This document shows positions 2,434 to 20,495 of a stretch of 64,000 nucleotides of DNA, piece by piece. Location: contig JAJYNN010000003.1 of assembly GCA_021786315.1 (NCBI GenBank), positions 67,360 through 131,359 on the forward strand. Direction: 5' to 3'. The notes below the pieces were generated by a model. That model was not told the origin of the DNA, did not search any database, and saw nothing but the letters and a program-made list of their open reading frames with translations. Positions within the stretch are counted from its first letter, which is position 1. Each line of letters begins with the position of its first letter. The position numbers and the translations under genes were made by a program. Origin of the DNA: a bacterium (GTDB lineage: Bacteria; Patescibacteriota; Microgenomatia; Daviesbacterales; UBA10151).

Positions 2434-2467
2434 CATCCGTTATATACTATTATGACCTCTCCGAATT

Positions 2468-3868: not shown

Positions 3869-3874
3869 AAAATC

Positions 3875-4566: not shown

Positions 4567-4632
4567 GTAGAAAATAATACCTTAAAAGGCAAATGCTTTA
4601 CATTAATATTTCTCACCAAAATTATCTGGAAA

Positions 4633-5031: not shown

Positions 5032-5033
5032 GG

Positions 5034-5465: not shown

Positions 5466-5965
5466 TATTTAGTCTCCTTTTTAACTCTCGGTTTTCTCAC
5501 TACTTTTTTCTCAGTCTTTTCTTCTGTTTCTTCTGCTTTTCCGACGTTCTGAGATTCTGATACGCTGACACTCTGATCTATTGATTTCTCTGATTTTCCG
5601 GTTTTCTGATCTTCTGAGATGAGCGTCATCTTTACCAACATAGCTCCGTCTCCGGCTCTGTTGCCAAGCCTCACAACTTGAGTAAAACCGGAAGCCCTGG
5701 TTTTATAGGAAGGGGCAATTTCTTCCAGTAATTTTTTGCTGACTTCTTTTTGGGGCAAGTTTGATTCAACGACTCTTCGGGAAGCGTTGGTATTTTCCCG
5801 GCCTTTAGAAATTAAGCGGTCAACCAAGCCTTTAATAGCTTTAGCTTTGGCTTCAGTGGTAGTTAAATGGCCTTGGAGGATGAGACTACGAACTAAGCCT
5901 CTAAAAAGGGCTGTTCTTTGATTTTTGTCTCTACCAAGGTGCTTACCATAGACTTTATGCCTCAC
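5465..5965 (-). CDS. rplQ: 50S ribosomal protein L17 with ~45-aa Ser/Glu-rich C-terminal extension
   Basis: [24 protein letters not shown] is typical bL17. The C-terminal extension (5538-5628) is encoded by the ctctgat-type repeat element. Confidence 0.9.
5538..5628. repeat. In-frame palindromic ctctgat-type repeat element, copy in the rplQ C-terminus
   Basis: ttctgatacgctgacactctgatctattgatttctctgattttccggttttctgatcttctgag. Homologous to the copies at 9229, 15192 and 19751. Confidence 0.55.
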
Positions 5966-6863
5966 TTAGACTCAAACCCCTTTCCTGAAGTTTTTGGGAG
6001 ATCAAAGTCAAAGACTGTACTCCCAAATTTTTAGTTTTCAAAAGCTGGGCACGGGGTGCAGTGATCAATTTTTCCACAGTCTCGATATCCACAGCTTTTA
6101 AGGCATTGGTAATTCTGACAGGAAGATCTAACTCTTCGACACTAAGCTTTAAGACATCATCCGGGACTTTGGTTTCCTCAACCTCTTCGCCTTCAAATAC
6201 CGGCTCAAAGAGCTGCTTGAAGTAATCGCTTAAAACCTTGGCTGATTGGTTTAAAGCCTCTTCCGGTTTGACACTGCCGTCAGTGGTAATGTTCATCACC
6301 AGCTTGTCGAAGTTAGTGCTGCGGCCAACACGGGTTGGCTCAACTTTGTAATCAACTGAAATTACCGGGGTAAAGATGGAATCAATTGGCAGGACTCCGA
6401 TTTCGGAAGTTTTCTTTTCATCAGCGCCGACATACCCCACACCCTTTTCCGCAGTCATCTCAATATTTAATTTGGCGGAAGGAGTGTTCAAAGATGCAAT
6501 GTGCTGATCAGGGTTAACGATCTCTCCGCCACCCATGGCATTAATATCCCGGGCTTTGACTTCACCTTTTCCGGAAGCCTTAACAACCAATCTGATGGGC
6601 TTATCAGAAAAGATTCTCAGTTTAACCTTCTTAAGGTTCAGGATTATTTGGATAACGTCTTCCGAGATTCCCGGAATGGTGGAGAATTGATGGGAAACTC
6701 CATCGATCTTAATAGTGGAAATAGCAGCTCCTTCTAAACCGGAAAGTAACACCCGGCGCAAAACGCTGCCTAAAGTGTGGCCGAAACCTCTCTCTAAGGG
6801 TTCGATGGCAAAAGAGCCAGAATTATCAGTTTGTTCAATTGTGTTTATTTTAAAATTAATCAT
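5955..6863 (-). CDS. rpoA: DNA-directed RNA polymerase subunit alpha
   Basis: AIEPLERGFGHTLGSVLRRVLLS N-terminal domain signature. 302 aa. Confidence 0.95.
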   Translation of the reverse strand: MINFKINTIEQTDNSGSFAIEPLERGFGHTLGSVLRRVLLSGLEGAAISTIKIDGVSHQFSTIPGISEDVIQIILNLKKVKLRIFSDKPIRLVVKASGKGEVKARDINAMGGGEIVNPDQHIASLNTPSAKLNIEMTAEKGVGYVGADEKKTSEIGVLPIDSIFTPVISVDYKVEPTRVGRSTNFDKLVMNITTDGSVKPEEALNQSAKVLSDYFKQLFEPVFEGEEVEETKVPDDVLKLSVEELDLPVRITNALKAVDIETVEKLITAPRAQLLKTKNLGVQSLTLISQKLQERGLSLSEA

Positions 6864-6865
6864 GG

Positions 6866-7468
6866 TTATCTACTATAATATTCAACAATCAGATGTTCGT
6901 CTATCCCCGACTCGGCCTCATCCCTATTTGGAACCCGTAAAACCTTGCCTACGGTAGCCTTTCTTTCCAGCCACTCCGGCAAGGTAGTTTGAGCATCCAA
7001 ACTTTTTCTAACCTGTGTATTATCTAACATCTTCTTCAAAATAGCAACAGTTGATCCAGGTTTGACTTGAAAGGATGGAATTGTCACTTTTTGGCCGTCA
7101 ACACTGATATGTCCGTGGGAAACCATCTGCCTGGCGCCGGCCCGGGAAGGAGAAAAACCTAAACGGTAAACAACATTATCCAGTCTGGTTTCCAAAAGCT
7201 GCATCAAAACATTCCCGGTATTACCCCTCACCTTGCTGGCAGTTTGATAATATTTGGCAAACTGTTTTTCCAAAAGGCCATAAGTCCTTTTGGCCTTTTG
7301 TTTTTCCCGGAGTTGGATACCGTATTCAGAAACTTTCCGGCGGGCACGGGGATGGACCGGTCCGGGAGGAACAGCTCCTTTTCTTTCAATGAAGGCAGCA
7401 TCTTTAGCAAATAGTGCTACACCTTCACGACGGGATAATTTTCTTTTTGGTCCGGTATAACGCGCCAT
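6866..7468 (-). CDS. rpsD: 30S ribosomal protein S4
   Basis: MARYTGPKRKLSRREGV... is typical uS4. 200 aa. Confidence 0.95.
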   Translation of the reverse strand: MARYTGPKRKLSRREGVALFAKDAAFIERKGAVPPGPVHPRARRKVSEYGIQLREKQKAKRTYGLLEKQFAKYYQTASKVRGNTGNVLMQLLETRLDNVVYRLGFSPSRAGARQMVSHGHISVDGQKVTIPSFQVKPGSTVAILKKMLDNTQVRKSLDAQTTLPEWLERKATVGKVLRVPNRDEAESGIDEHLIVEYYSR

Positions 7469-7582
7469 ATAAATTTAATTTTCAATTTACAATTTTCAAT
7501 TTACAATGGATTTTCAATGTTCTTAATCTTGAAAATTTGATCATTAGTAATTACTTGAAAATTGGTTATTGATACTTGAAAA
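7469..7582 (-). promoter_or_regulatory. AT-rich structured leader upstream of rpsD, with three TTGAAAAT copies and three inverted ATTTTCAA copies
   Basis: The intergenic rpsK-rpsD region holds aattttcaatttacaattttcaatttacaatggattttcaatg followed by cttgaaaatttg...cttgaaaattgg...cttgaaaattatacc. The two arms are mutually complementary, so it can form a long hairpin. Confidence 0.35.
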
Positions 7583-7987
7583 TTATACCCTCCTTTTCTT
7601 TTTAGCCCTCGCACCATTGTGGGGTGTGGGAGTAACATCAGCAATTAAAGTAATATTTAACCCGGCGCTCTTTAAAGCCCGGATAGCAGCATCCCGTCCG
7701 CTCCCAGGTCCTTTGATATAAACCTCAACAGCAGACATGCCGACGCTTTTGGCTTTATTGGCCAACTTTTCCATAGCGGTAATGGCAGCAAATGGAGTAG
7801 CTTTTCTGGTGCCCTTAAATCCGGAAGCTCCGGATGAACCCCAACCCAAGGTGTTGCCTTTTTCATCGGTTAAGGTAATTAAGGTATTGTTAAATGTTGC
7901 GGTTACATAAACTCTCCCGGAAGGGATTTGTTTGTTAACGGCGCTCTTTTTAGTTGCTTTTGTTTTTATAGTTTGTTTCTTGGCCAT
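7583..7987 (-). CDS. rpsK: 30S ribosomal protein S11
   Basis: ATFNNTLITLTDEKGNTLGWGSSGASGFKGTRKATPFAA is typical uS11. Confidence 0.95.
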   Translation of the reverse strand: MAKKQTIKTKATKKSAVNKQIPSGRVYVTATFNNTLITLTDEKGNTLGWGSSGASGFKGTRKATPFAAITAMEKLANKAKSVGMSAVEVYIKGPGSGRDAAIRALKSAGLNITLIADVTPTPHNGARAKKKRRV

Positions 7988-7990
7988 ATA

Positions 7991-8383
7991 TTATTTTCCT
8001 CCGGTTTTGGCGACAACATCCTTTCTCACAGTTCCCACTGTCTTTCTCTTACCGCGTCGGGTCCGGCCATTAGAACGGGTTCTCTGACCTCTGGTAGGCA
8101 AACCCCGGCGGTGCCTAATTCCCCTGTAAGCTCCGATCTCTTCCAGTCTTCTGATGTTTTGGTTAATTTCCTGGATCAAATCCCCCTCAACCTTAAATTG
8201 CTCGACTGCCTTCTGGATCTTTCCAACTTCTTCCTCAGTTAAGTCCTTAATCCTTTTGGCTCCGTCAATTTTAGCATCAGCGATAACTTTTTTAACATTA
8301 GCGCGGCCAATGCCAAAGATATAGGTTAACCCTATATCGACTCTTTTTTCATCTGGTAAGTTTACTCCGGCAATTCTTATCAT
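7991..8383 (-). CDS. rpsM: 30S ribosomal protein S13
   Basis: MIRIAGVNLPDEKRV...YRGIRHRRGLPTRGQRT is typical uS13. Confidence 0.95.
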   Translation of the reverse strand: MIRIAGVNLPDEKRVDIGLTYIFGIGRANVKKVIADAKIDGAKRIKDLTEEEVGKIQKAVEQFKVEGDLIQEINQNIRRLEEIGAYRGIRHRRGLPTRGQRTRSNGRTRRGKRKTVGTVRKDVVAKTGGK

Positions 8384-8385
8384 AA

Positions 8386-8502
8386 TTATCCCTGCCTTTG
8401 CTTATGGCGGGCATCGCGTGAACAAATCACGTAAAGTACACCCTCGCGTTTAACGATTTTACAAAATTTACATCTGGCTTTAATACTTGCTTGTACTTTC
8501 AT
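8386..8502 (-). CDS. rpmJ: 50S ribosomal protein L36 (not in the ORF track; found by hand)
   Basis: The reverse complement translates to [38 protein letters not shown] (38 aa), the canonical bL36 zinc ribbon. It lies between infA and rpsM as in most bacteria. Confidence 0.9.
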
Positions 8503-8506
8503 ATCG

Positions 8507-8749
8507 TTACTTTAACCTAAAAGTAATCCTTCCTTTACTCAAGTCATATTTCGGGCTCATTTCCAGTTTTACCCTATCGCCTGCCAAAAGTTTTATATAG
8601 TGCAAGCGCATCTTGCCGGAAATATGAGCTAAAATTGTATGCCCTTCCAACTCTTTTAAATCAGGGGAGCGGTCAATGACCACCCGAAAGAGCGTGTTAG
8701 GCAATACCTCAGCTATCTTCCCTTCAACCTCAATTACGTCGTTATTCAT
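8507..8749 (-). CDS. infA: Translation initiation factor IF-1
   Basis: [43 protein letters not shown] is the S1-like OB-fold signature of IF-1. Confidence 0.9.
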
Positions 8750-8813
8750 ATCTTGTTCACAAGACGAACCATTTTAACAAATCTAGCCTCAAATTACAAT
8801 ACTATGGGCAGCA

Positions 8814-9632
8814 CTATAATCCACGCCAATCAGTAGTAATTTCAGGCTTCTTTTTACCCACAATTACCGACATCTCAAACAGGCCACCTAGGCTACCATC
8901 TTTAGTAGAAATTGTCCAGCCATCATCTGTTTCATACACTTCTCCCCGGCCCTCAGCATAAATTACTTCGATTGCCAAAGTCATACCCGTACGCAATATC
9001 AACCCTTTTCCGGCAGTGCCGTACTCAGGGATCTCCGGATCTTCGTGAGCCTCTCTCCCCACTCCATGGCCAGCCAAACTTTTAACAACCGAATAACCCG
9101 CGCCTTCCACACCCTGTTGGATAACTGAGGAGATATCGCCGATTTTTTTGCCCTCAACCGCTTGGGCAATCGCCTTCCATAAAATCTCTTCCCCTACTTT
9201 TAGAAATTTCTCCTTTTCTTTCAGAGTACCGGCGTCTCGGAGTGTCGGAGTGTCGGAATTTTCTGATATTCCGATACTCTGATACTCTGATGCTCTGACT
9301 ATTACCGACCATGCCATATCTGAGTGCCAACCTTCATAAACCGCCCCCAAATCAATCCCCAAAACATCCCCGTCTTTTAATTCTATATCCCTGGGTATCC
9401 CGTGGACAACCTCATCGTTAATAGTCAGGCAGGTGGTCCAGTAATACCCGGGCACAGTTTTGAAGGAAGAACGGCCTCCTAATCTTTGGATCTCATTCTC
9501 GGCGATCTCGTCCAGTTCCTTTAAGGTAATCCCTACCCGAACATTCTCGATAACCTTTTTCATAGCACGGGCGGCAATTTGGCCGCTCTTTCTAAAAAGT
9601 TTGAGCTCTTCTTCTGTTCTAGACTGCACCAT
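8814..9632 (-). CDS. map: Methionine aminopeptidase type I, with an ~25-aa in-frame surface-loop insertion
   Basis: MetAP motifs are present (GHGVGREAHEDPEIPEY, metal ligands). The insertion ASEYQSIGISENSDTPTLRDAGT is encoded by the palindromic repeat at 9229-9299. Confidence 0.9.
   Translation of the reverse strand: MVQSRTEEELKLFRKSGQIAARAMKKVIENVRVGITLKELDEIAENEIQRLGGRSSFKTVPGYYWTTCLTINDEVVHGIPRDIELKDGDVLGIDLGAVYEGWHSDMAWSVIVRASEYQSIGISENSDTPTLRDAGTLKEKEKFLKVGEEILWKAIAQAVEGKKIGDISSVIQQGVEGAGYSVVKSLAGHGVGREAHEDPEIPEYGTAGKGLILRTGMTLAIEVIYAEGRGEVYETDDGWTISTKDGSLGGLFEMSVIVGKKKPEITTDWRGL
9229..9299. repeat. In-frame palindromic repeat element, copy inside map
   Basis: cggcgtctcggagtgtcggagtgtcggaa-ttttctgata-ttccgatactctgatactctgatgctctgac. 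The arms are mutually complementary (11/13 positions, G-U tolerated). Confidence 0.6.
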
Positions 9633-10170
9633 AAACCACCTTTCCGGTAAAGCTCCTGGCTATCTCATCCCCAACTTCTTCGATGCTTTTGCTGCCATCA
9701 ATCCTGATTAGTTTATTTTGTTTTTGATAAAAATCTAAAACCGGCTCAGTCAGCTGGTGAAAAATGGACAACCGCTGTTCAATTACCTCCGGAGTATCAT
9801 CTTCCCGGCCTCTTTGGAGTAACCTTTTTTCCGCTAACTCATCGGAAATGTCCAGGTAAAAAACTATGTCAAACTTGGGATCATAGGCTTTGAGCTGGGC
9901 TATTTCCCTGGGGTAACCATCCAAAATAAAGCCTGTCCGGTATTCAGGCTTTTCCAACTCATCCCGCAAAATTTTAGCCATTACCTCATCATCAATTAAT
10001 CTTCCGGCTTCCAAATCCTCTTTGACAGATCTCCCAATAACATCATCTGCTTCTGCCCTTTTACGGGCCAGGTCGCCGGCAGACGAAAAGGCTATCCTTA
10101 ACTTATCGGACAAAAGCTCTGCTTGGGTGGTCTTGCCTGAACCTTGGGGGCCAGTGATGAGTATTCTCAT
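9619..10170 (-). CDS. adk: Adenylate kinase (short form)
   Basis: MRILITGPQGSGKTTQAELL P-loop. 183 aa. Confidence 0.9.
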   Translation of the reverse strand: MRILITGPQGSGKTTQAELLSDKLRIAFSSAGDLARKRAEADDVIGRSVKEDLEAGRLIDDEVMAKILRDELEKPEYRTGFILDGYPREIAQLKAYDPKFDIVFYLDISDELAEKRLLQRGREDDTPEVIEQRLSIFHQLTEPVLDFYQKQNKLIRIDGSKSIEEVGDEIARSFTGKVVYGAV

Positions 10171-10174
10171 AGGC

Positions 10175-11461
10175 TTATTTTAAGAAGGATTCGTAGTTCC
10201 TCTCGACTAGTTTGCTCTCGAATTGTTTGGCAGTATCCAAAATTACCGAAACCACAATCAAAAGCCCGGTGCCCCCCAAAGCCAAGGTGGTAACGTTAGT
10301 AATTTGGGAAACAATCGAAGGCAAGATTGCCACTATCCCCAAAAAGAGAGCTCCGGCCAAGGTAATCCTATTCAAGATATAAGTTAGATAGCTGGCCGTG
10401 GCTTCCCCCGGCCTGATTCCGGCAATAAAAGCCCCGGCTTTTTTCAATTCATCGGCAATCTTGTTGGGGTTGAAAACGACAGCCGTATAAAAGTAGGTAA
10501 AGCCAATCACCAGGAAAAAGTAGGTTAAGTTATAAGTTAAAGAGCGCACCTGGAAGTTGGCAATAAACCACCTACCAATATTTTGTAAAGCCGGCTGGGG
10601 AAGTTGGGATAAGTACTGGCCGGCAAACGACGGAATTAATACCAAAGACACCGCAAAGATAATCGGGATCACACCGGCTTGGTTGACCCGCAGCGGCAGG
10701 TACATTGAAGCCCGGTTAACTTCCCGCCCCCCGGTAAAACGCCGGGCATATTGGACCAAAACCTGCCTTCGGCCTTCATTAATAAAGACTACCCCAGCAG
10801 TAATTGCCAAAGCCAAAGCCGCAAAAAGAAGATAATTTAGGATTTGCTGGGTATCAACCAAGGAAGCAGTTTGGGCAACCGTCACCGGCATCCGGGCCAC
10901 AATACCGGCAAAAATCAGAAGAGAGATGCCGTTGCCGATACCGTATTCGGTAATCAATTCCCCCAGCCACATGGCAAAAAGTGTGCCGGCAGTCATGGTG
11001 ACAATTATAAGAAGAATGCTTAAAGGATTAAATTGGAGGATAATCCCCTGGTTTTTGAGCAGGGTAAACATGGCAATTGACTGCAACACCGCCAAAGGAA
11101 CAGTCAGATACCTGGTATATTGGTTAATTTTTTGCCTGCCGTACTCACCCTCTTTGGATAAGGCCTCAAGGGAGGGGAAGACCATAGTTAAAAGCTGGAT
11201 AATAATCGAGGCATTAATATAAGGATTAAGTCCTAAAGAGATAACTGAGAAATTAGCTAAAGTCCCGCCTGAAAAAATATCCAAAAGACCTAAAAATTGG
11301 TTCCCGGAGAAAAGAGAACGTAATGCCTGTAAATCTACCCCGCTTACCGGAATATGGGCTGCAATTCGGTAAACAATGATGATTATGGCAGTGATAATGA
11401 TTTTTCGGCGAAGTTCAGGGATCTTAAGGGAGTTAATTATCGGGGCAAGGAAGCTAGTCAC
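10175..11461 (-). CDS. secY: Preprotein translocase subunit SecY
   Basis: Ten TM segments and a typical SecY sequence. The ORF-track ATG at 11488 has no SD and overlaps rplO by 35 nt. An in-frame GTG at 11461 is preceded by AGGAGGG and overlaps the rplO stop by only 7 nt, so I prefer the GTG start. Confidence 0.85.
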
Positions 11462-11894
11462 GAATAACTTTCCCTCCTGCTTTTTCAATCTTGGCGGCAG
11501 CTGAAGCAGTCACGGGTAATTTTATATTTAAAGCTTTGGTAATCTCACCATCACTCATAATTTTGACTCCATACTTTTTCGCATTACTTTCAGAGACTAA
11601 ACCTTTTTCAATAACGCTTTGCAAATCGATTGTTGTCCCTGCAGCAAAAGCAGAAAGCTTATCTAAAGATAATGTTACCATTTTTGCGCTCATTTTAGGA
11701 TTACCCAATCCCCGACGGTAGGGGAACTTTTTGTACATGGGAAGTGTTCCCCCGATAAATCCGGGAGCAACCTTACCACGGGCTTTTTGGCCTTTGGTTC
11801 CCCGTCCGGAGGTTTTTCCTTTTCCGGATCCCAAACCCCGGCCAACCCTTTTCTTCGATCTTTCGACAACTTTGCTTAATTCGTGTAGTTTCAT
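11454..11894 (-). CDS. rplO: 50S ribosomal protein L15
   Basis: [28 protein letters not shown] is typical uL15. Confidence 0.9.
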
Positions 11895-11895
11895 C

Positions 11896-12408
11896 TTATT
11901 TCTTCCCTTTTTTAGCTCTTTTTACCTTTGGCTCCTCTGACTCATTCGACTCTCTGACTTTTAATTTCAATTCTTTTAACGCCTCCAAGGTAGCATAAAT
12001 ATTGGAAGCCCGGTTGCTGGTTCCGATAATCTTAGAAACTACATCGGAAATTCCTGCAGCATCAACAACCACCCGCACCGCTCCTCCGGCAATAATACCA
12101 GTACCTGCGGGAGCTGGTTTCAGCAAAACTTTAGCCGCGCCTCTTTTAATCACTACAGTGTGGGGAATAGTCCGGTTATCAACTAAAGGAACAGTGATCA
12201 TATGTCTTTTGGCATAAGTTGAGGCCTTTCTGACCGCTGACTGAACATCGGAAGCTTTACCTAAGCCCACACCAACCCGGCCTTTTTTATCACCGGCAAC
12301 CACCAAAACCGAAAGGGACCTTTTGTCTCCGCCTTTGGTCTTTTTGGAGACCCGGTTTACCTGGACAACTTTTTCGAAAAATTCCGGAACAATTACATCT
12401 GGATTCAT
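11896..12408 (-). CDS. rpsE: 30S ribosomal protein S5 (with Lys/Glu-rich C-terminal tail)
   Basis: VNRVSKKTKGGDKRSLSVLVVAGDKKGRVGVGLGKA is typical uS5. It is directly followed by rplO with no L30 gene between. Confidence 0.95.
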   Translation of the reverse strand: MNPDVIVPEFFEKVVQVNRVSKKTKGGDKRSLSVLVVAGDKKGRVGVGLGKASDVQSAVRKASTYAKRHMITVPLVDNRTIPHTVVIKRGAAKVLLKPAPAGTGIIAGGAVRVVVDAAGISDVVSKIIGTSNRASNIYATLEALKELKLKVRESNESEEPKVKRAKKGKK

Positions 12409-12409
12409 A

Positions 12410-12754
12410 TTAGAACTTTAAGCCTCCTTCTCTGGCGCCGCTGGCCAACTTTTCCACTCTTCCGTGATAGGCATAACCGCCACGGTCAAATACTACCTCT
12501 TGGATAGCTTTTTTCAAAGCCTTTTCCGCCAACTTTTTACCGATTTCAAAAGAGATATCCATTTTTGTTTTTCCTTTTTTCTCCAGCTTCATGTCGGACT
12601 CGGCCACCAGGGTCTTGCCCTGGGCATCATCGATAATTTGGGCATAAATGTGCTGGCTGGAACGGTAAACCGCCAAACGCGGACGGGCTGTTGTTCCGGC
12701 TAAATGCTTTCTGACCCTGATATGTCGCTTGTTTCTGCTGGCAACTTTGTTCAT
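12410..12754 (-). CDS. rplR: 50S ribosomal protein L18
   Basis: RPRLAVYRSSQHIYAQIIDD...VFDRGGYAYHGRVEKLASGAREGGLKF is typical uL18. Confidence 0.9.
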   Translation of the reverse strand: MNKVASRNKRHIRVRKHLAGTTARPRLAVYRSSQHIYAQIIDDAQGKTLVAESDMKLEKKGKTKMDISFEIGKKLAEKALKKAIQEVVFDRGGYAYHGRVEKLASGAREGGLKF

Positions 12755-12755
12755 A

Positions 12756-13307
12756 TTATTTTCCTGCTCCTACCTTTCCGGCCTTGCCTGCTTTTCTCTT
12801 TACATATTCACCGCTGTAGCGGATACCTTTCCCCTGGTAAGGTTCCGGCGGCCTGACACCGCGAATCTTGGCGGCGATTTGACCAACCAAATGTTTATCA
12901 ATTCCCGAAACTTTAACCTTGGTATTATCCTCAACGGCAAATTTAATTCCTTCCGGGGCTTCAATTTCTACAGGATGGGAATAACCAACGTTTAAAGTTA
13001 TCTTTTCCGGAGAACCCTGGACCCTATAACCTACTCCCACCAATTCCAGCTTTTTCTCCCAGCCTTTGGAAACACCGCTTACCATATTAAAAAGCAATGA
13101 TCTTGTCAAACCGTGCAGAGACCGGGACACCTTGTCCTCTTTGTGGCGTTTAACGATTAATACCTGATCTTCCTGCTCAATCTTCACCTCAGGACGAGTT
13201 TCCATATGTAATTCTCCTAAAGGACCGGTAGCTTTGACCTTGCGGCCCTCAATCTCGACATTTACTCCGGCAGGTATTTCAATGGGTGCATTACCAATTC
13301 TTGACAT
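12756..13307 (-). CDS. rplF: 50S ribosomal protein L6
   Basis: MSRIGNAPIEIPAGVNVEI... is typical uL6. The ORF-track start at 13319 is a TTG; the ATG at 13307 matches canonical L6 N-termini. Confidence 0.9.
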   Translation of the reverse strand: MSRIGNAPIEIPAGVNVEIEGRKVKATGPLGELHMETRPEVKIEQEDQVLIVKRHKEDKVSRSLHGLTRSLLFNMVSGVSKGWEKKLELVGVGYRVQGSPEKITLNVGYSHPVEIEAPEGIKFAVEDNTKVKVSGIDKHLVGQIAAKIRGVRPPEPYQGKGIRYSGEYVKRKAGKAGKVGAGK

Positions 13308-13312
13308 AAAGC

Positions 13313-13702
13313 TTACCAAACGTAGGCCATGATCTCTCCGCCTACCTTCTCCTTTCTTGCCTCTTTATCAGACATAATTCCTCTTGGTGTGGAAATAATG
13401 GCAATTCCTAGCCCATCAAATACCCAAGGTAAATCTTTGTTCCCACGGTAAACCCGAAGTCCGGGTTTGGAGATTCTCCGCACTCCGGAAAGGGCCGGGG
13501 TAGCCAGGGATCCGGCTTCTTTGTGGTATTTCAAGGTAACCTTGATATTCCGGTCTTGTACCTTGCAGCCGTCAATGTAGCCTTCCTTCTGCAAAAGCTC
13601 ACAGATAGCTGCCCCTAATTTTGAGCGGGAAACAGTGACCTCTTTTAAGGAAGCCATATAACCGTTTTTAATTCTGATTAATAAATCTCCAACTTTATCC
13701 AT
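13313..13702 (-). CDS. rpsH: 30S ribosomal protein S8
   Basis: MDKVGDLLIRIKNGYMA...GGEIMAYVW is typical uS8. The upstream extension in the ORF track (to 13729) would overlap rpsN; the Met at 13702 matches S8 N-termini. Confidence 0.9.
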   Translation of the reverse strand: MDKVGDLLIRIKNGYMASLKEVTVSRSKLGAAICELLQKEGYIDGCKVQDRNIKVTLKYHKEAGSLATPALSGVRRISKPGLRVYRGNKDLPWVFDGLGIAIISTPRGIMSDKEARKEKVGGEIMAYVW

Positions 13703-13706
13703 AATG

Positions 13707-13886
13707 TTACCAGCTCGCTTTCTTGACACCCGGCAATTGGCCGTTGTGGGCTAATTCTCTAAAACAAAGCCTGCATACACCAAACTTGCGGATCACACCG
13801 CGGGACCTGCCGCAGCGAACACAGCGGCTATGATAGCGGACTTGGTATTTTTCTTTATTTTTAACTACATTACTTGTTTTAGCCAT
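13707..13886 (-). CDS. rpsN: 30S ribosomal protein S14 type Z (zinc-binding; not in the ORF track)
   Basis: The reverse complement translates to [59 protein letters not shown] (59 aa). CxxC...CxxC and the C-terminal [11 protein letters not shown]-type ending are canonical for S14Z. It sits between rplE and rpsH. Confidence 0.9.
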
Positions 13887-13898
13887 ATATTTCTTTTT

Positions 13899-14453
13899 TT
13901 AATTCTTTTTAAAAGGCATCCCTAAAAGCTCCAAGAGCTTTCTGCCTTGTTGTTTGTCGCGAGCAGTAGTGACAATCGTAATTTCCATCCCCCGGGTTTT
14001 TCCGTCGGTGTTTTGTCCGACATAACTGACTTCAGGGAAAAGTGTCTGCTCCTTTAACCCCAAGTTAAAGTTTCCCTGGTTGTCAAAAGAAGTAGTTGGC
14101 ACTCCCCGAAAATCCCGGACTTTCGGCAAGACGATTGTTACCAACTTGTCAAAAAACTCGTACATTCTATCACCTCGAAGGGTAACCATCACCCCGACAG
14201 CCTGACCTTGGGCCAACTTAAACCCGGAGATAGACTTTTTAGCTCTTGTTACCTGGGGCTTTTGCCCGGATAAAGCACTCAAGTTTTCCTGGATCTTGTC
14301 CAAAGCGGCCGCATTATCTTTAGCATCACCGGCTCCAACATTGATGACAATCTTTTCCATTCTTGGTACCTCTAAGTCATTGACAAACCCAAACTCTTCC
14401 TTAAGCTTCGGTTTGATCTCTTTTTGATATTTTTCAGTTACCCTGGTACTCAT
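13899..14453 (-). CDS. rplE: 50S ribosomal protein L5
   Basis: 184 aa. Typical uL5 core (…RGMEITIVTTA…). Confidence 0.95.
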   Translation of the reverse strand: MSTRVTEKYQKEIKPKLKEEFGFVNDLEVPRMEKIVINVGAGDAKDNAAALDKIQENLSALSGQKPQVTRAKKSISGFKLAQGQAVGVMVTLRGDRMYEFFDKLVTIVLPKVRDFRGVPTTSFDNQGNFNLGLKEQTLFPEVSYVGQNTDGKTRGMEITIVTTARDKQQGRKLLELLGMPFKKN

Positions 14454-14456
14454 AAT

Positions 14457-14771
14457 TTATTTAATAACCTCCTTGCATTTTTTGCATACCCGGTATTTTT
14501 CCTGTCCTTCAATTTTGTATCCAACCCTGGTTTCCTTTTTACAATTTGGACAAACCAAAGCTACATTGCTTACCGGAAGAGGCTTAGGCAAATCCAAAAT
14601 TCCTCCCTCGTTTTGTCCTGTCCTTCGGATGTGTCTTTTGTAAAGGTTTACCCCTTCCACTAAAACCTTGTTATCTTTAGAAAAAACACGGACCACCTGA
14701 CCGGTTTTACCGGCATCTTTTCCTGTTAATATTTTGACTGTGTCGCTTTTTTTAATCTTCATTTTTACCAT
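14457..14771 (-). CDS. rplX: 50S ribosomal protein L24, with a C-terminal 4-Cys zinc-ribbon-like extension
   Basis: The KOW motif [21 protein letters not shown] is followed by CPNCKK...CKKCKEVIK. Confidence 0.9.
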
Positions 14772-15133
14772 ACCTCCGGTGCCAATGAGGCAATTTTGGT
14801 ATAACCTTTATCACGGACTTCCCTGGCTACCGGCCCAAAGACACGGGTAGCCCTTAAGTTCTTGTCTTTGTCCACAATTACTCCGGCATTCTCATCAAAC
14901 TTTACATAAGATCCATCAGCCCGGCGGACTTCTTTCCTGGTCCGGACGATTACGGATTTGACAACTTCCTTATCCTTCACCTGTCCGTTAGGGACAGCGC
15001 CCTCAACAACTGCCACCACCAATTCACCAACACTGGCTTTCCTTTTTCCGGAACCTCCTAAAGGCTGGATTACCCTTAAAAGCTTGGCTCCGCTATTGTC
15101 GGCAACTTTAATAACTGATCTGTGCTGTACCAT
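14765..15133 (-). CDS. rplN: 50S ribosomal protein L14
   Basis: [23 protein letters not shown]...[24 protein letters not shown] is typical uL14. Confidence 0.95.
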
Positions 15134-15627
15134 TATTTTTTACCTCTCTTTGTTTTCTTCTCACTCTTCTCTTCTTTTTCTTCTATCTTCTCTTCTGATT
15201 TCTCTGATATACCGACACTCTGATCCTCTGACTCACTGATCTTCTGATCTTCCGATTCCTCTGATTCTGGCATTACCTCTGCAATTGCTTCTTTGGCCTC
15301 TTCTTTCAGCTGCTCAGTCACAATAGCCTCAATATCCTTACCAACCACTCTTAAGATCTGGAAGTGCTTATTGGCAGACATTGGTTTGATTTGAACAATC
15401 TCCACCAAATCCCCCTCAGAAACGCCTAAAGTATCATGAACAAGATATTTCTTAGTGCGTCTGAAGGTCTTTCCATACAAAGGGTGAGTTTTGACGCTCT
15501 CCACGATTACAGTCACGGTTTGTGGCTGCTTGGCCGACGTCACCCTTCCGCGGGTTACGGTTTTGGCTTTTTGCATTAACGACTTCTCTTCTTTCATATT
15601 TTGGTTCTTTTTAACTACTTTAGGCAT
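15133..15627 (-). CDS. rpsQ: 30S ribosomal protein S17 with ~80-aa acidic Ser/Glu-rich C-terminal extension
   Basis: Core [11 protein letters not shown]...[18 protein letters not shown]. The start is moved to the ATG at 15627 (MPKVVKK), which has a perfect SD (AAGGAGG, 6-nt spacing) and sits 2 nt after the rpmC stop. The C-terminal tail contains the repeat element at 15192-15268. Confidence 0.85.
15192..15268. repeat. In-frame palindromic repeat element, copy in the rpsQ C-terminus
   Basis: ttctctgatataccgacactctgatcctctgactcactgatcttctgatcttccgattcctctgattc. Confidence 0.55.
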
Positions 15628-15859
15628 TCTTTTCCTCCTTTTGGGCTGCTTCAAACGCTGCCAATACTACTTTTTGCTGCAATACGGTCTGCATTTGCGC
15701 TAAATCCTTTCTTTTATTTTTAATAGCTTTCAAGTTTGTCATCTTATTCGTAACTTTATCAAGTGTCAACTTGGCAATTTCCTCCTCGGCCTTTTTAATT
15801 TGGCCTTCCAGGTTCTTAATGTCTGTTTTTTTAATTTCTGCTAAATCGCTTTTTTTCAT
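15620..15859 (-). CDS. rpmC: 50S ribosomal protein L29
   Basis: 79 aa, helical. MKKSDLAEIKKTDIKNLEGQIKKAEEEIAKL resembles uL29. Its position between rplP and rpsQ is conserved. Confidence 0.85.
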   Translation of the reverse strand: MKKSDLAEIKKTDIKNLEGQIKKAEEEIAKLTLDKVTNKMTNLKAIKNKRKDLAQMQTVLQQKVVLAAFEAAQKEEKNA

Positions 15860-15891
15860 AATTTTGTTAAAAATTTCAAGCTTTGCTTATA

Positions 15892-16308
15892 TTAACTTTC
15901 CTTAGTTACAAACTTAGTTTTTAACGGCAATTTGTGAGCTGCCAGCCTTAAGGCTTCAGTGGCGGTAGCAGAATTTACAGCTCCCATCTCAAAAATAATG
16001 CTTCCAGGCTTAACCACTGCCACATACCCAATAACCTCACCTTTACCGGATCCCATTCTGGATTCAGCCGGGTGCTTGGTAATTGGCTTATCAGGAAAAA
16101 TCCTGATCCAAAGTCTTCCCCCACGAGCCGTAAAGTGGGTGATGGTGCGTCTGGCCGCCTCAATTTGGCGGGAAGTGACCCACCCTCTTTCCGTCGACTT
16201 TAGGCCAAAGGTTCCAAAAGACAAATCGTTACCCCGGCTGGCTACTCCGCCTCTTTTGCCGCGGAAAGTCTTGCGGTATTTTACTCTTTTAGGTACTAAA
16301 AGTGCCAT
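15892..16308 (-). CDS. rplP: 50S ribosomal protein L16
   Basis: [24 protein letters not shown]...[19 protein letters not shown] is typical uL16. Confidence 0.95.
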
Positions 16309-16309
16309 A

Positions 16310-16954
16310 TTAAGCCTTTACCGCCTCCCCCCGGTTAATCCAAACTTTAACCCCGACATAGCCGGACTTAGTTAAAGCCGGGACTGCTGCAAAATCAATA
16401 TCTTGTCTTAAAGTGTGAAGCGGCATAGTTCCCAAAGACTTTCCTTCACGCCGGGCAATTTCTGCTCCCCCAATTCTTCCGGAAAGGATGATCTTTACTC
16501 CTTTAGCCCCAGCCCGCATCACTCTTTCCACTGATTGGTTCATTACCCTCTGAGCAGGCAGCCTTTTGGCTAACTGTTCAGCAATGTTTTGAGCCACTAG
16601 ATAAGCAGAGAGGTCAGGAGCCCGGACATCCATCGGAGCAATTTCCAGAGCATTCTCATCCTTGACCTCCAACTCCCGCATTAGGAATTTCTTCAGCTCG
16701 GTCAATCCGGTTCCGCCGCGGCCAATTAAAACTCCCGGTCGGGCCACAAAGATTAAGACTTTAACTTTATTAGCCGCTCTCTCGATTTCAACTTTGGTTA
16801 CCCCGGCAGCTTTTAATTTGCGCATTAAAATTTCCCGGATCTTAATATCCTGGGAGACATATTGGCTGTACTTCTTGCTGTCGGCAAACCATCTGGATTG
16901 CCAGGTGGCGCTTGTACCCATCCTAAAACCTACCGGATTAATCTTCTGCCCCAT
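16310..16954 (-). CDS. rpsC: 30S ribosomal protein S3
   Basis: [13 protein letters not shown]...KH domain...[12 protein letters not shown] is typical uS3. Confidence 0.95.
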
Positions 16955-17337
16955 TACTTTTCCTCCTTCTTAGTAACCTTGGCTTTTTTTACTTTTGGTT
17001 CTGCTTCAGCTGCTTCCGTTAGCACTATCCTGATATGGCTTAATTTCTTTCTGAAAGGCCTGACCCTTCCCCGGGCTCCCGGCTGGAAACGGCCCATCTT
17101 AATTCCTTCGTTGACCTCAAGTTTGGCAAAAGCCAGTTTCTCTTCATCAAGGTTTTGCTGTCTGGCATTACCCAAAGCAGTCTTGATAGCTTTGGCTAAG
17201 TCATCAGCTGCAGCCCTGTTAGTAAACTCCAGGGTGGTTAAAGCCCTGGCAGGCTTCATTTTTCTGACCAGATCAGCCACCAGCCGCAATTTGCGGGGTG
17301 AGCTATGTACATTTTTTTGTATACTTGTTACTTCCAT
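16954..17337 (-). CDS. rplV: 50S ribosomal protein L22 (with Lys-rich C-terminal tail)
   Basis: SPRKLRLVADLVRKMKPARALTTLEF... is typical uL22. Confidence 0.9.
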   Translation of the reverse strand: MEVTSIQKNVHSSPRKLRLVADLVRKMKPARALTTLEFTNRAAADDLAKAIKTALGNARQQNLDEEKLAFAKLEVNEGIKMGRFQPGARGRVRPFRKKLSHIRIVLTEAAEAEPKVKKAKVTKKEEK

Positions 17338-17352
17338 TTTTAATCTCCTTTT

Positions 17353-17637
17353 TTAAGTCTTCGCTGATGATTTTTCAGTCATCTTTCCGTGTCCTTTAAA
17401 ATTCCTGGTTGGAGAAAACTCTCCCAACCTGTGACCGACCATTGATTCACTGACGTAAACCGAAATAAAGTTCTTGCCGTTATGAACCATAAAGGTGTGT
17501 CCGACAAAATCCGGAGAAATCTGGCTGTGTCTGGCCCAGGTCTTAATCGGGGTTTTGGCACCACCGGATTTCTGGTTTAAAACCTTCTTCAATAACTTTT
17601 CATCAATATATGGTCCTTTTTTCAATGATCTAGCCAT
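17353..17637 (-). CDS. rpsS: 30S ribosomal protein S19
   Basis: [19 protein letters not shown]...[32 protein letters not shown] is typical uS19. Confidence 0.95.
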
Positions 17638-17639
17638 TT

Positions 17640-18464
17640 TTATTTAGATTTTCTCCTTTTCAAAATATATTTATTCGTATATTTCCCAACTTTTCTGGTC
17701 CTGCCAACAGCCGGTCTGCCGTAATAAGTCATCGGTTTCTTGCGTCCGACTCCGGATCTTCCTTCTCCTCCTCCATGGGCGTGAGAGCGGGGATCCATAG
17801 CTGTACCGCGAACTTTTGGCTTAATACCCATGTGCCTTGATCTTCCGGCCTTACCAAGCTTCATGTGCTTGTACTCTTCGTTACCCAAAGCCCCAATTGT
17901 GGCCATTGATTCCAAGGAAATCATTCTAATCTCCCCGGATGGCATTTTCAAGTGAGCAAAGGGTGGTTGCTTCGCCTGTAATGTTAAGGATGTACCGGCA
18001 CTGCGGCCTAATTGTCCGCCTTTACCGGGGGTCATTTCGACATTGTGGACAACTGTTCCCACCGGCATATTTTTCAGCCTCATGGCATTTCCGGTTTTAA
18101 CTTCAACCTTATCTCCGGAAACTACCTGATCCCCAACTTTTAAGCCTTTTGGAGCCAGGATATAGCGGTACTCGCCATCCGGGTACTTAATCAAGGCAAT
18201 ATTGACGTTACGGTTTGGATCGTAAGCAAAAGCCTCAACTTTACCCGCCACAGTAAACTTATCCCGTTTAAAGTCAACGATCCGGTAATATCTCTTGTGT
18301 CGGCCGCCTTGATGACGGACAGTAACTTTGCCGCCGGAGCGTCCGCTCTTTTTAGGAAGGATTACTTCCAGTCCGGCAGGAACCACGGCCAATTTCCCCG
18401 GCTTGGTCATCCTGGAGGCAAATCTGCGGGTCTTGGTTTTTTCTTTGTACTCAACTAATGCCAT
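17640..18464 (-). CDS. rplB: 50S ribosomal protein L2
   Basis: 274 aa. ...[18 protein letters not shown]...[35 protein letters not shown] is typical uL2. Confidence 0.95.
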
Positions 18465-18541
18465 ATTTTTTCCTTGGACAGATCTGGACTTATCTTCCGG
18501 GAGCTATTTAGTCTGCTTCCCAGATCGTCCATTCGTATCTG

Positions 18542-18961
18542 TTACTTTTTACCCCCTTTTTTCTTTTTTTCATCATTTTCTTTTCCTTCTTTTTCGATCT
18601 TAACTCTGGTGCCTTTTAATAAACTCTTCTTTTCTTTTACTTCAGCCTCTTGTTCTTCCACTTTTTCAACTTTAGCCTCTGTCTCAAACAAACCGATCTT
18701 TTGGCCATCTTTTAGTCTAATCATGGCTTTTTTAGCTTCTCCGGTAGAAAAGTATTTTCTCCTGTTGCCTCTTTGAAGCTTGTTTTGAGCCTTGATGGAA
18801 GCTGTTTTAATATCCACAACTTTGACCCCGAATTGTTTTTCCACTGCCTGGGCAATTACGTGTTTGGTGGCCTTGGCGTTTACCAGAAAGGTATACCAAC
18901 CGGCTTTGGTAAGCCCCACAGATTTTTCAGATACAATCGGTCTTTTTAAGATAATATTCAT
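18542..18961 (-). CDS. rplW: 50S ribosomal protein L23 (with Lys/Glu-rich C-terminal tail)
   Basis: KRPIVSEKSVGLTKAGWYTFLVNAKATKHVIAQAVEKQFGVKVVDI is typical uL23. Confidence 0.85.
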   Translation of the reverse strand: MNIILKRPIVSEKSVGLTKAGWYTFLVNAKATKHVIAQAVEKQFGVKVVDIKTASIKAQNKLQRGNRRKYFSTGEAKKAMIRLKDGQKIGLFETEAKVEKVEEQEAEVKEKKSLLKGTRVKIEKEGKENDEKKKKGGKK

Positions 18962-19065
18962 CAGTGGCTAGTCGCTAGAGTCTTGAATCTAGGACTTAAC
19001 CTCCTTTTCTTGTTTTTTATCCTTACTAGACTCCAAACTCTTGACTCTAGACTCTAGTTTTTCTG
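18962..19065. repeat. CTAGAGTC-type palindromic repeat spanning the rplD 3' end and the rplD-rplW spacer
   Basis: cagtggctagtcgctagagtcttgaatctagg ... ctagactccaaactcttgactctagactctag. Its coding part gives the rplD tail LESRVKSLESS. Confidence 0.4.
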
Positions 19066-19720
19066 CTGCTTCTTTGGTCAGCATTAAGGTTTGGAACTTT
19101 AGAACCTGCATAATATTTAACTGGTCAAAAGCCACCGCCTCCACCTTGGGCAAATTCCGGACAGCCCTTTCCAACTTTTCCGGTGTTTTATCTGTTACCA
19201 AAAGTAAGTTGTTCTTAGCCAATTTATTAACAAATTCCTGAATTTGCTTGGTCTTTCCGGAAACAGTATCTACTCCGGTCACACCCAGAAGGTTGCCGTT
19301 TGAAACTTTAGAAGATAAAGCGGCAACTAAAGCCGCTTTTCTCATCTTCTTGGGTAGATCCAAGGTCACTTTCCGGTATTTTGGACCTAAAGCAATACCT
19401 CCGCCAACAAAGATCGGGGCGCGGAGGGCACCATGCCTAGCTCCACCGGTTCCTTTTTGGGTCCTGATTTTTCTGGTAGAACCCTGGACTTGCCCCCTAG
19501 TTTTAGTGTTGGCAAAATGGGATTTTTGGTTATTGGTATAAACCCTAACAGCCTGGGCCAGAAGGGTTTTATTAACTTTCGCTCCAAAAACCTCTTCCGG
19601 TAAAGACAAAGTGCCACTTTCTACCCCGGTCATGTTATAAACCGGTACCAAAAGACCTTCTGCCTTTTTAGCAGCTACCTTAGTAACTTTTTCAGTTGTT
19701 TCTTTCTTAACTCTCGGCAT
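18989..19720 (-). CDS. rplD: 50S ribosomal protein L4
   Basis: 243 aa. A typical uL4 core (…GSTRKIRTQKGTGGARHGALRAPIFVGGGIALGPK…). The C-terminal tail is encoded by the CTAGAGTC-type repeat. Confidence 0.9.
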   Translation of the reverse strand: MPRVKKETTEKVTKVAAKKAEGLLVPVYNMTGVESGTLSLPEEVFGAKVNKTLLAQAVRVYTNNQKSHFANTKTRGQVQGSTRKIRTQKGTGGARHGALRAPIFVGGGIALGPKYRKVTLDLPKKMRKAALVAALSSKVSNGNLLGVTGVDTVSGKTKQIQEFVNKLAKNNLLLVTDKTPEKLERAVRNLPKVEAVAFDQLNIMQVLKFQTLMLTKEAAEKLESRVKSLESSKDKKQEKEVKS

Positions 19721-20495
19721 TTACTTCTCCTTCTTCTTCTTTCGGTGTATCGGCGTCTCGGTGTGTCTGTGTGTCAGAACTCTCTTCTTCGCTGACATTC
19801 TGATGCTCTGATGCTCCGACACTCTGTTCTTCTTCCTCCTCAATCTTTTCTTCCGGTGGAGGAGTATAGCCTTTGATTCTTCCCAGTTTAGTAATTTCCA
19901 CCAAAGATCCTACCGGTCCGGGAACTCCGCCTTTGACCACTAATAAATTATTCTTTTTATCCACAGTAACCACTTCCAGATTCTTCACTGAGACGGTATC
20001 AAAACCATAGTGTCCGGCCATTCTCTTACCCTTGTAAACCCGTCCCGGGGTAGTCCCTGACCCTAAAGATCCGGGAGCGCGGTGCCTGTCTGACTGGCCG
20101 TGGGTTTTCGGGCCACCGGCAAAGTTATAACGCTTGACCCCGCCGGCAAAACCCCGACCCTTGGAAACACCAGCAACTTTAACGGCATCACCTTTAGAAA
20201 AGACATCGCCAACGTGGAGTTCTCTTCCTAAGTCCTCCACCTTGCCGGTTACTTCTCTAAAAAACCGGAGCTTTTGATCTACTCCGGCCTTCTTAGCGTG
20301 TCCCACTTGAGGTTTCTTAACTGATTTTTTAGTGGAAAAACCAAGCTGGGTTGCTTCATATCCATCTTTATCCTTGTTTTTAATTTGGGTAACAAAGTTG
20401 GGCCCAACTTCCAAAATTGTAGCGCCAACACGGCGCCCACGGGCATCGTAGGTTGAAGTCATATTTTTCTTAATTCCTAATAATGTATTAACCAT
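19707..20495 (-). CDS. rplC: 50S ribosomal protein L3 with ~55-aa acidic C-terminal extension
   Basis: Start set at the ATG at 20495 (MVNTLLGIKKNMTSTYDARGRRVGATILEV), which aligns with canonical L3 N-termini. The ORF-track GTG at 20588 would add 31 unmatched residues. The C-terminal tail contains the repeat element at 19751-19826. Confidence 0.9.
   Translation of the reverse strand: MVNTLLGIKKNMTSTYDARGRRVGATILEVGPNFVTQIKNKDKDGYEATQLGFSTKKSVKKPQVGHAKKAGVDQKLRFFREVTGKVEDLGRELHVGDVFSKGDAVKVAGVSKGRGFAGGVKRYNFAGGPKTHGQSDRHRAPGSLGSGTTPGRVYKGKRMAGHYGFDTVSVKNLEVVTVDKKNNLLVVKGGVPGPVGSLVEITKLGRIKGYTPPPEEKIEEEEEQSVGASEHQNVSEEESSDTQTHRDADTPKEEEGEVNAES
19751..19826. repeat. In-frame palindromic repeat element, copy in the rplC C-terminus
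   Basis: cggcgtctcggtgtgtctgtgtgtcagaa...ttctgatgctctgatgctccgacactctg. It shares the 11-mer cggcgtctcgg and the tgtc/ctgat core with the map copy. Confidence 0.6.

Follow-up and report, generated by a model that had tools for sequence, protein, structure and literature searches.

We analyzed a 64-kb stretch of DNA from a member of the Patescibacteriota (contig JAJYNN010000003.1 of assembly GCA_021786315.1, positions 67,360 to 131,359 of the forward strand; hereafter the window, with positions counted from its first base), in which four genes, rplQ, rpsQ, rplC and map, carry imperfect tandem arrays of one 8-nt unit that are translated as part of the protein. Our analysis suggests that these four intervals hold members of a single DNA-level repeat family built on this unit, whose arrays change in length by slippage, may gain an inverted copy of themselves, are occasionally copied to other sites, and persist in permissive segments of essential proteins. 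To this account, taken as a whole, we assign a probability of about 0.55.

Octamer arrays in rplQ, rpsQ, rplC and map

According to the list of open reading frames (ORFs), the minus strand of the window between ~4.6 and 22.4 kb corresponds to the S10-spc-alpha ribosomal-protein cluster, and the closest database proteins to those of the window belong to Candidatus Daviesbacteria (Microgenomates; Patescibacteria or candidate phyla radiation, CPR). The four genes are the following:

5465-5965, minus strand: rplQ, gene for L17 (limits from a database protein)
8814-9629, minus strand: map, gene for MetAP (limits from an identical database protein)
15133-15627, minus strand: rpsQ, gene for S17 (limits from an identical database protein)
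19707-20462, minus strand: rplC, gene for L3 (limits from an identical database protein)

The arrays are located in the tails encoded by rplQ, rpsQ and rplC and in the loop encoded by map, and on the coding strand their unit can be written as TCRGAGYR or, in a looser form, as TCRGARNN. Tandem Repeats Finder detected head-to-tail arrays of period 8, with 2.2-5.9 copies, at all four of the four loci:

5582-5617: period-8 array in rplQ
9237-9257 and 9261-9303: period-8 arrays in map
15218-15265: period-8 array in rpsQ
19799-19816: period-8 array in rplC

The motif CTGATNCTCTGA, with one mismatch at most, occurred 12 times against 0.70 expected, and 10 of the 12 occurrences fall on the plus strand within the four intervals. 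A scan for three consecutive units with up to five mismatches returned these four loci only in 64 kb, all on the minus (coding) strand. A preliminary description of this DNA had placed four homologous in-frame segments within a few bases of where we find them; the 23-nt core that it gave as common to all copies has eight matches at up to three mismatches (zero expected; rplC needs three), at the four loci only, and the peptides that it quoted, including DTQTHRDADT, are all present. The alignment of the four intervals that it proposed bore out their relationship, as blastn of each copy against the window always returned the other copies as the best non-self matches. The map copy aligned with rplC over 84 nt without gaps (77% identity, E = 1e-9), with rpsQ over 29 nt (90%, E = 1e-5) and with rplQ over 31 nt (87%, E = 4e-5); the rpsQ and rplQ arrays resemble the other copies at the unit level only.

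The DNA of this genome that was scanned for arrays amounts to ~79 kb (~8% of the genome; 942,606-bp contig), and comprises the 64-kb window plus 5.3 kb upstream and 9.5 kb downstream from other assemblies of the same organism, which are identical to the window across the overlap (the overlap lies outside the arrays). No further array of this kind was found in the 5.3 kb upstream or the 9.5 kb downstream, and no intergenic copy was found within the ~79 kb.

All four copies (rplQ, map, rpsQ and rplC) are in frame and read through. Since a period of 8 is not divisible by 3, the frame shifts from each unit to the next, so that all three frames are in use, and the similarity between the copies is therefore at the DNA level and not at the peptide level, as the preliminary description had maintained. 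The recurrent peptide pattern S-E-x-Q-S/R-I/V-G/R is thus dictated by the DNA unit and not the reverse. An array (TCAGAGTA)n is open in three of three sense frames and is closed by TGA in three of three antisense frames, and (TCGGAGTG)n is open in all six. That the unit is stop-free in sense and closed in antisense explains why all arrays in the window share one orientation relative to their gene.

The four copies differ in their anatomy, as follows:

5540-5618, minus strand: rplQ one-armed array, more degenerate, with ~10 units, in the L17 C-terminal tail
9222-9299, minus strand: map quasi-palindromic octamer-array element (Tandem Repeats Finder, blastn and folding)
15193-15270, minus strand: rpsQ one-armed array with ~9 tandem units of 8 or 9 nt, within the variable stretch of the S17 C-terminal tail
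19743-19826, minus strand: rplC quasi-palindromic element, homologous to that of map, in the L3 C-terminal tail (84-nt ungapped alignment)

In the map element, the A arm (9261-9299, coding strand) comprises the five units TCAGAGCA TCAGAGTA TCAGAGTA TCGGAATA TCAGAAAA, and the inverted B arm (9222-9258) the five units TCCGACAC TCCGACAC TCCGAGAC GCCGGTAC TCTGA. This element encodes RASEYQSIGISENSDTPTLRDAGTL, and the corresponding tryptic peptide of MetAP would be ASEYQSIGISENSDTPTLR. The rplC element has the same layout (A arm, 19791-19826; B arm, 19743-19779) and encodes QSVGASEHQNVSEEESSDTQTHRDADTP, with the conserved tail flanks PPPEEKIEEEEE and KEEEGEVNAES on either side. The rpsQ units read TCAGAGGAA TCGGAAGA TCAGAAGA TCAGTGAG TCAGAGGA TCAGAGTG TCGGTATA TCAGAGAAA TCAGAAGAG.

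The map and rplC copies align column for column over the 84 nt, with the same arm order and length, and the aperiodic units GAGACGCC and G(G/A)TAC occur in both, identically ordered. This collinearity, which includes the aperiodic units, is not reproducible by independent slippage and points to a shared copying event. The alignment implies that one of the two would be a copy of the other, or that both would derive from a common source, consistent with the copying between loci that the preliminary description had deduced from their shared stretch. Its wording of a "recent spread" is too strong, given that the best pair is 77% identical.

A degenerate-unit scan of the window returned one further candidate:

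11932-11958, minus strand: possible fifth, three-unit mini-array (GTCAGAGA GTCGAATGA GTCAGAGGA) in the rpsE (S5) C-terminal tail

This mini-array encodes KVRESNESEE, the same place in two relatives (L322 and L323) has no array, and it may be a remnant of the family. In the same part of the window (11454-12408), rpsE is directly followed by rplO (L15), with rpmD (L30) absent between them; loss of L30 is a reported trait of the CPR. A degenerate period-8 array of TCGGTG type (ATCGGATGA AATCGGTG AGTCGGTG GATCAGTT TGCCGGTG) is also present on the minus strand at 41413-41444, within an ORF (39964-42366) for 800 amino acids with no Pfam match, and resembles the TCGGTGGG unit of the MetAP insert of locus L001 described below. 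It should be noted that the arrays found in the ~79 kb all lie inside a 15-kb ribosomal-protein cluster (window 5465-20462); candidate reasons are local copying, high transcription, or a confinement of permissive tails to these proteins.

Host segments of the arrays and their turnover

To place the arrays in their proteins, we compared MetAP, L3 and S17, whose protein clusters contain one member sequence each, with sets of 120 homologues each (P0001-P0120, P0121-P0240 and P0241-P0360, respectively). All 120 L3 homologues share the segment PPPEEK...(E)n, a variable middle, and ...EGEENA, and all S17 homologues share a conserved flank, a variable middle and then a Lys-rich end (KKKEKK). The tails are rich in Ser, Glu, Asp and Lys in all L3 and S17 relatives, and the L17 proteins of two relatives (L201 and L202) are tailed as well. 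As all Daviesbacteria L3, S17 and L17 homologues examined are tailed with conserved flanks, the repeat did not create the tails, to which the preliminary description had ascribed their origin. To judge from these homologues, the tails are old in Daviesbacteria, with the repeat filling only the hypervariable middle.

Many orthologous L3 and S17 middles encode octamer-array peptides (e.g., SEDQNISESE and SENQNVGEPEKS), and inverted-arm peptides are found there too (e.g., SPSEFSESE). The DNA of three relatives (L201, L203 and L204) confirmed arrays and hairpins, with other unit variants and other routes of TGA avoidance; the B-type arms of L203, L204 and a further locus, L058, use TCCGA or TCTGG variants. 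The closest relatives carry different sequence at the same positions (L3, 75-88% identity; S17, 74%), and turnover is therefore fast. The choice between a mobile repeat and an ancient lineage-specific extension, as it had been framed earlier, has a divided answer: relatives do carry the tails, some with related octamer arrays and some with unrelated sequence. Metagenome contigs with an L5 anchor (L121-L200) have 51-57% identity to the query and are unsuited to orthologue comparison.

In different genomes, further short motifs are found repeatedly in the tail middles of both L3 and S17, including SSAEATEGKE / SFDSAQDKS / SDAEAMEGKE, KGQE(V/L)SIKGEE, the heptamer-like LSAVSHQ / SVISNQ, and SENRKLKTDN. 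Their recurrence suggests that further small DNA cassette families may be present at these sites.

In MetAP, residues 116-140 take the place of four residues in the Thermotoga maritima structure 1o0x, so that the segment is an insertion relative to solved MetAP structures, as had been proposed. An AlphaFold (AF2) model built from the 120 homologues has a mean pLDDT of 92, which falls to 54-61 across the insert; the latter has no secondary structure in the model and sits between a strand (105-110) and a helix (130-154). The site is thus predicted to be a disordered surface loop. Its length among the 120 homologues ranges from 0 to ~35 residues, with many unrelated inserts, and the nearest MetAP relatives (67-69% identity) have short, unrelated loops. 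The same octamers (TCGGTGGG TCAGAGTA TCGG) open the MetAP insert of locus L001 (1350-1460), which also includes a GC-rich palindrome (...GCTCGCCTCGCTCTCGCCTCGCTTCGGGGGCAAAGCGGGTCGCGGGCGAAGCGGG...). Against 1.84 billion representative proteins, the 32-residue insert of map, a query too short for the result to be informative, matched only an unrelated adhesin repeat. More generally, the MetAP loop after AWSVxV is a hot spot of inserts, some of which are bounded by repeated K(D/S/N)Q.

The preliminary description had found it striking that such segments are tolerated in ribosomal proteins and MetAP. This tolerance is less striking than it seems, since the segments that host the arrays are disordered and, throughout the lineage, hypervariable.

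Folding, spread and alternative explanations

The account that we favor combines these observations as follows. Octamer arrays would grow and shrink through replication slippage, and an array that gained an inverted copy of itself would become a quasi-palindrome of 80-100 nt. Whole arrays or palindromes would occasionally be copied to other permissive sites, a step that might proceed by ectopic conversion or template switching through A/G-rich microhomology, or by mobilisation in trans as for a MITE (a miniature transposable element with inverted repeats) or a Rickettsia palindromic element (RPE). Copies persist in essential genes because the unit is stop-free in three sense frames and because they are confined to disordered hypervariable segments, namely the acidic tails of L3, S17 and L17 and the surface loop of MetAP. 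The antisense unit TACTCTGA carries TGA, so the inverted arm survives within an ORF only as stop-free variants, namely TCCGA, TCTGG, or a TGA out of frame. In the two palindromes of the window, such variants result in A.C mismatches in the mRNA and in G.U pairs on the opposite strand. In all likelihood, the elements are passengers, neutral or selfish, that are translated as a filler rich in Ser, Glu, Gln, Ile and Gly and probably have no function of their own.

The inverted repeat and hairpin that had been attributed to the element hold for map and rplC and not for rpsQ and rplQ. The map copy folds at -50.5 kcal/mol on the plus strand (z = -9.0) and at -26.9 kcal/mol on the mRNA strand (z = -3.0), and the rplC copy at -33.3 kcal/mol (z = -5.3) and -17.2 kcal/mol (z = -1.6), respectively. 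Compared with shuffles, the rpsQ copy forms no hairpin (z = +0.26 and +0.85 on the two strands), nor does the rplQ copy (z > +1 on both strands). The plus strand is antisense to the ribosomal-protein mRNA, and on it the map and rplC palindromes have 7 and 6 G.U pairs, against 0 and 1 on the mRNA strand; the better folding of the plus strand is explained by the fact that the arms differ by transitions, which give G.U pairs there. The sequence of a perfect inverted arm would be TCTGA, whose TGA is lost in the observed TCCGA, so that part of the asymmetry is predicted by ORF maintenance. Of the pair cells, 91% are conserved in both the map and the rplC copy, with two double and five single pair-preserving changes, and the covariation of this pair, which comprises two sequences only, is indistinguishable from shuffles (136/500). 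G.U asymmetry as a rule of the whole family was rejected, as the two elements of L058 and that of L204 lack it. At the elements, the sole overlap with Rfam 15 was mir-2024 (24.6 bits against a gathering threshold of 69; E = 0.37), and terminator and promoter scans found nothing, with no terminator-like site.

Hairpins of similar make-up were observed in other genomes. An apparently non-coding hairpin in a Tepidiformales (Chloroflexota) locus (L012, 4620-4710) folds at -67.7 vs. -53.6 kcal/mol on its two strands, and one in a Saccharibacteria locus (L011, 4899-4982), which ends 4 nt before the start codon of ssb, at -38.1 vs. -23.1 kcal/mol. Both have arms made of the units seen in map, in which (GAGTGTCG)n faces (CGATACTC)n or a similar unit. 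An inverted-array palindrome of (GTGTCGGA)n / (TCCGACAC)n is present without interruption on a viral contig (IMGVR_UViG_3300045253_000041; L324, 3100-3200), and its two strands fold equally well (-78.3 and -79.2 kcal/mol).

Several points weigh against the slippage-and-copying account. The strand asymmetry exceeds what stop avoidance needs, TGA being in frame for one unit in three only, and the apparently non-coding hairpins in the Tepidiformales and Saccharibacteria loci have the same arm units and the same polarity, which leaves room for an RNA- or strand-specific role. Regarding the copying step, there is no clear target-site duplication at the copies and none at map, the rplC flanks GAAGAAGAA and AAGAAGAA being poly-Glu codons native to the tail, and a Pfam scan found no transposase family among 20 ORFs of the window. 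Copy number and the presence of intergenic copies were judged from ~8% of the genome. Finally, simple neutrality does not explain why all copies cluster in the ribosomal-protein operon.

To look for related arrays elsewhere, we scanned genome contigs with three consecutive TCRGARNR units followed by TC; the loci given here (L003-L120) are among the matches listed, and the genome of the window is not among them. In Collierbacteria, the gene for a class II ribonucleotide reductase (RNR; L058, minus-strand ORF 1230-3317) holds two in-frame copies of a 145-nt octamer-array palindrome (1634-1779 and 2273-2418). The two copies are 81% identical without gaps, have conserved inverted ends of 16-19 nt (TTCAGAAAACTCGGAA / TTCCAGAACACTCGGAA), and are both translated as SENSE.SESR.IRKS...SFPSVLER; the 16-mer CGGAATATCAGAAAAT is common to this element and the map copy of the window. 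This two-copy element indicates that discrete, multi-copy, in-frame octamer palindromes exist in Microgenomates, and RPE-like behaviour in this group is plausible. In-frame arrays were also found in Daviesbacteria Rho (L033, 5053-5142, minus-strand ORF 3719-5422), where 13 perfect TCAGAGAG units in the N-terminal region are read as (SESQRVRE)n, and, as short arrays, in Doudnabacteria LeuRS and in a MurD-like protein of the CPR. A Saccharibacteria locus has (CACTCCGA)n immediately upstream of ssb. An open-frame analysis across 118 genome loci is unreliable in GC-rich genomes.

These findings bear on a possible, if unlikely, alternative, namely that the repeat is a bona fide non-autonomous element of MITE or RPE type, with a trans-acting transposase that recognises inverted octamer-array ends; only in-frame, stop-free insertions would survive, and the one-armed arrays would be decayed halves. 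It would account for the two collinear palindromic copies in the unrelated genes map and rplC, for the pair of RNR copies with conserved inverted termini, and for the 16-mer that links L058 to map. Close relatives bear unrelated inserts at the same sites (in L3 between EEEEE and KEE, and in the MetAP loop), suggesting recurrent insertion, and published RPEs behave in this way (PMC10969869). However, the map copy has no target-site duplication, the 20 ORFs have no transposase, and the ~79 kb have no intergenic copy. In a terminal-inverted-repeat test, the inverted arms of map and rplC proved to be the array itself, so the window elements end in plain array units with no distinct terminus. Moreover, the two palindromes share only 77% identity, and the species-specific unit variants in the orthologous tails of many species fit turnover in situ.

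The opposite view, that the arrays arose by purely local microsatellite evolution, with independent period-8 slippage from a seed rich in Ser, Glu, Asp and Gln codons and no transfer between loci, we consider improbable. It agrees with the age and the Ser/Glu/Asp/Lys-rich composition of the tails in all relatives and with the unit-level similarity of the rpsQ and rplQ arrays. Arrays of period 8 with a comparable composition are also common across many phyla. Among the listed matches, the non-CPR ones are mostly perfect intergenic octamer microsatellites from many phyla, and in viral contigs a composition-matched control pattern of reversed order matched 68 stretches against 48 for the pattern itself. 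As the reversed control is at least as frequent, the wide distribution is not evidence for one family, and a single widespread cross-phylum family deduced from the breadth of matches was rejected. The view of local evolution is contradicted by the arm order, arm length and aperiodic variants that map and rplC share over 84 ungapped nt (E = 1e-9); in addition, MetAP relatives are mostly array-free at the site, so that no local seed is evident, and slippage cannot yield the two 145-nt copies of the L058 RNR. The perfect period-8 microsatellites, for example (GTCAGAGC)n, (GTCGGAAG)n and (ATCGGAGA)n, reach ~20 units (L003-L120, and L205-L320 from viral contigs) and lie mostly beside genes and not inside them.

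We hold it equally doubtful that the palindromes of the window belong to a cross-phylum family of octamer-array hairpins, in which (GAGTGTCG)n is paired with (CGATACTC)n and systematic G.U pairs fix the better strand. Such a family would be intergenic in Chloroflexota and Saccharibacteria (L012 and L011), perfect on the viral contig (L324), and located in frame within essential genes of Microgenomates, in antisense to the mRNA. If real, it would be a new strand-specific mobile element (e.g., one moved as a single strand) or a structured antisense RNA module.

A functional nucleic-acid structure is still harder to sustain. In that case, an RNA hairpin opposite the mRNA, or a single-strand DNA hairpin, would regulate in antisense, be a site of RNase III action or processing, or provide a signal for replication or recombination, and the peptide would be a by-product. 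The far better folding of the plus strand through G.U pairs speaks for such a role, as do the 91% of pair cells kept with two double and five single pair-preserving changes, and the non-coding hairpins of L012 and L011 with the same arm units and polarity, that of L011 directly upstream of ssb. Nevertheless, only 2 of 4-5 copies are hairpin-capable, the two-sequence covariation does not rise above shuffles (136/500), the L058 and L204 elements show no asymmetry, no Rfam match above noise and no terminator-like site is present at the elements, and the nearest relatives lack them.

Finally, selection of a peptide motif, with Ser/Glu-rich segments kept for a role in the ribosome or in MetAP and a nucleotide similarity due to codon usage, is very improbable, since, although acidic-middle tails are conserved as a lineage feature, one 8-nt unit read in three frames yields different peptides from the same DNA, unrelated sequence occupies these positions in the closest relatives, disorder is predicted for the MetAP insert, and the insert retrieved only an unrelated adhesin repeat from 1.84 billion proteins.

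In the tiny genomes of Patescibacteria, intergenic space is almost absent. If small repeats can persist in them only in stop-free form and within disordered parts of essential proteins, much of the length variation of ribosomal tails and enzyme loops would be explained. If true, the slippage-and-copying account would provide an independent second example of the phenomenon known from Rickettsia, and a warning to annotators and phylogeneticists that such segments are driven by the DNA and lack homology as protein sequence. A period of 8 nt offers a simple, searchable signature for such elements in metagenomes. What we regard as notable are the octamer-array architecture, its recurrence in several essential genes of the CPR, and the strand-asymmetric hairpins.

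Comparison with known repeat systems

A literature search for in-frame palindromic or octanucleotide repeats in the CPR found no description of them. The elements were compared with repeat systems of other organisms. Low-complexity inserts generated by slippage, as in Plasmodium, are disordered, fast-evolving segments in loops and tails of essential proteins, with repeat dynamics at the DNA level. They differ from the elements of the window in that their repeats are mostly of codon period (3n), lack an inverted arm and show no sign of having been copied from one gene to another.

The STRR sequences (short repetitive sequences repeated in tandem), for which our comparison draws mainly on what Mazel et al. 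reportedly described in 1990, likewise consist of short-period tandem units dispersed over many loci of one genome. Their units are heptamers, lie mostly between genes and are found in cyanobacteria, whereas the unit of the window has 8 nt and occurs in Patescibacteria. We know of no report of STRRs as translated in-frame protein segments or as inverted array pairs. As far as the reference list of PMC2858038 indicates, an STRR lies inside the essential RNase P RNA gene (Vioque, 1997).

Elements of MITE or REP type (ERIC, Correia, Nezha and REP/BIME) share with those of the window that they are short, dispersed, inverted-repeat DNA, capable of forming hairpins, and in some cases intragenic and in frame. 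A MITE is characterised by terminal inverted repeats of defined sequence, by target-site duplications and by a cognate insertion sequence, and lies mainly between genes. Here, no clear target-site duplication was found at the copies, no transposase family among the 20 window ORFs scanned and no intergenic copy in ~79 kb, and the inverted arms of map and rplC are the array itself. Palindromic amphipathic repeat coding elements (PARCELs) are coding repeats with dyad-symmetric DNA that are thought to be shuffled within and between genomes (PMC2996958). The likeness is that of a coding repeat whose DNA shows dyad symmetry; the PARCEL itself is an amphipathic domain of 25 residues, found in tandem in ORFs for surface proteins or proteins of unknown function, and not an array of 8-nt units in housekeeping enzymes.

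The closest parallel is offered by the RPEs, palindromes of ~150 bp that occur in several copies per genome, in frame within unrelated metabolic and housekeeping genes, and whose extra peptide is compatible with the fold of the host protein (PMC10969869). The sequence of RPEs is family-specific and non-periodic, whereas the elements of the window have 80-100 nt and consist wholly of tandem units of 8 nt; two copies out of four lack a palindrome, the L058 element is also array-based, and the host belongs to the Patescibacteria and not to Rickettsia. RPE families were compared by description. Of the RPE precedent invoked in the preliminary description, the part that stands is thus the in-frame behaviour, and the part that does not is the non-periodic palindrome of ~100-150 bp. 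Like RPEs, the copies of the window lie in frame in unrelated housekeeping genes and preserve the reading frame, and the 145-nt RNR element of L058 matches RPEs in size. By this analogy, the elements resemble RPEs in their effect, and the phenomenon is not without precedent.

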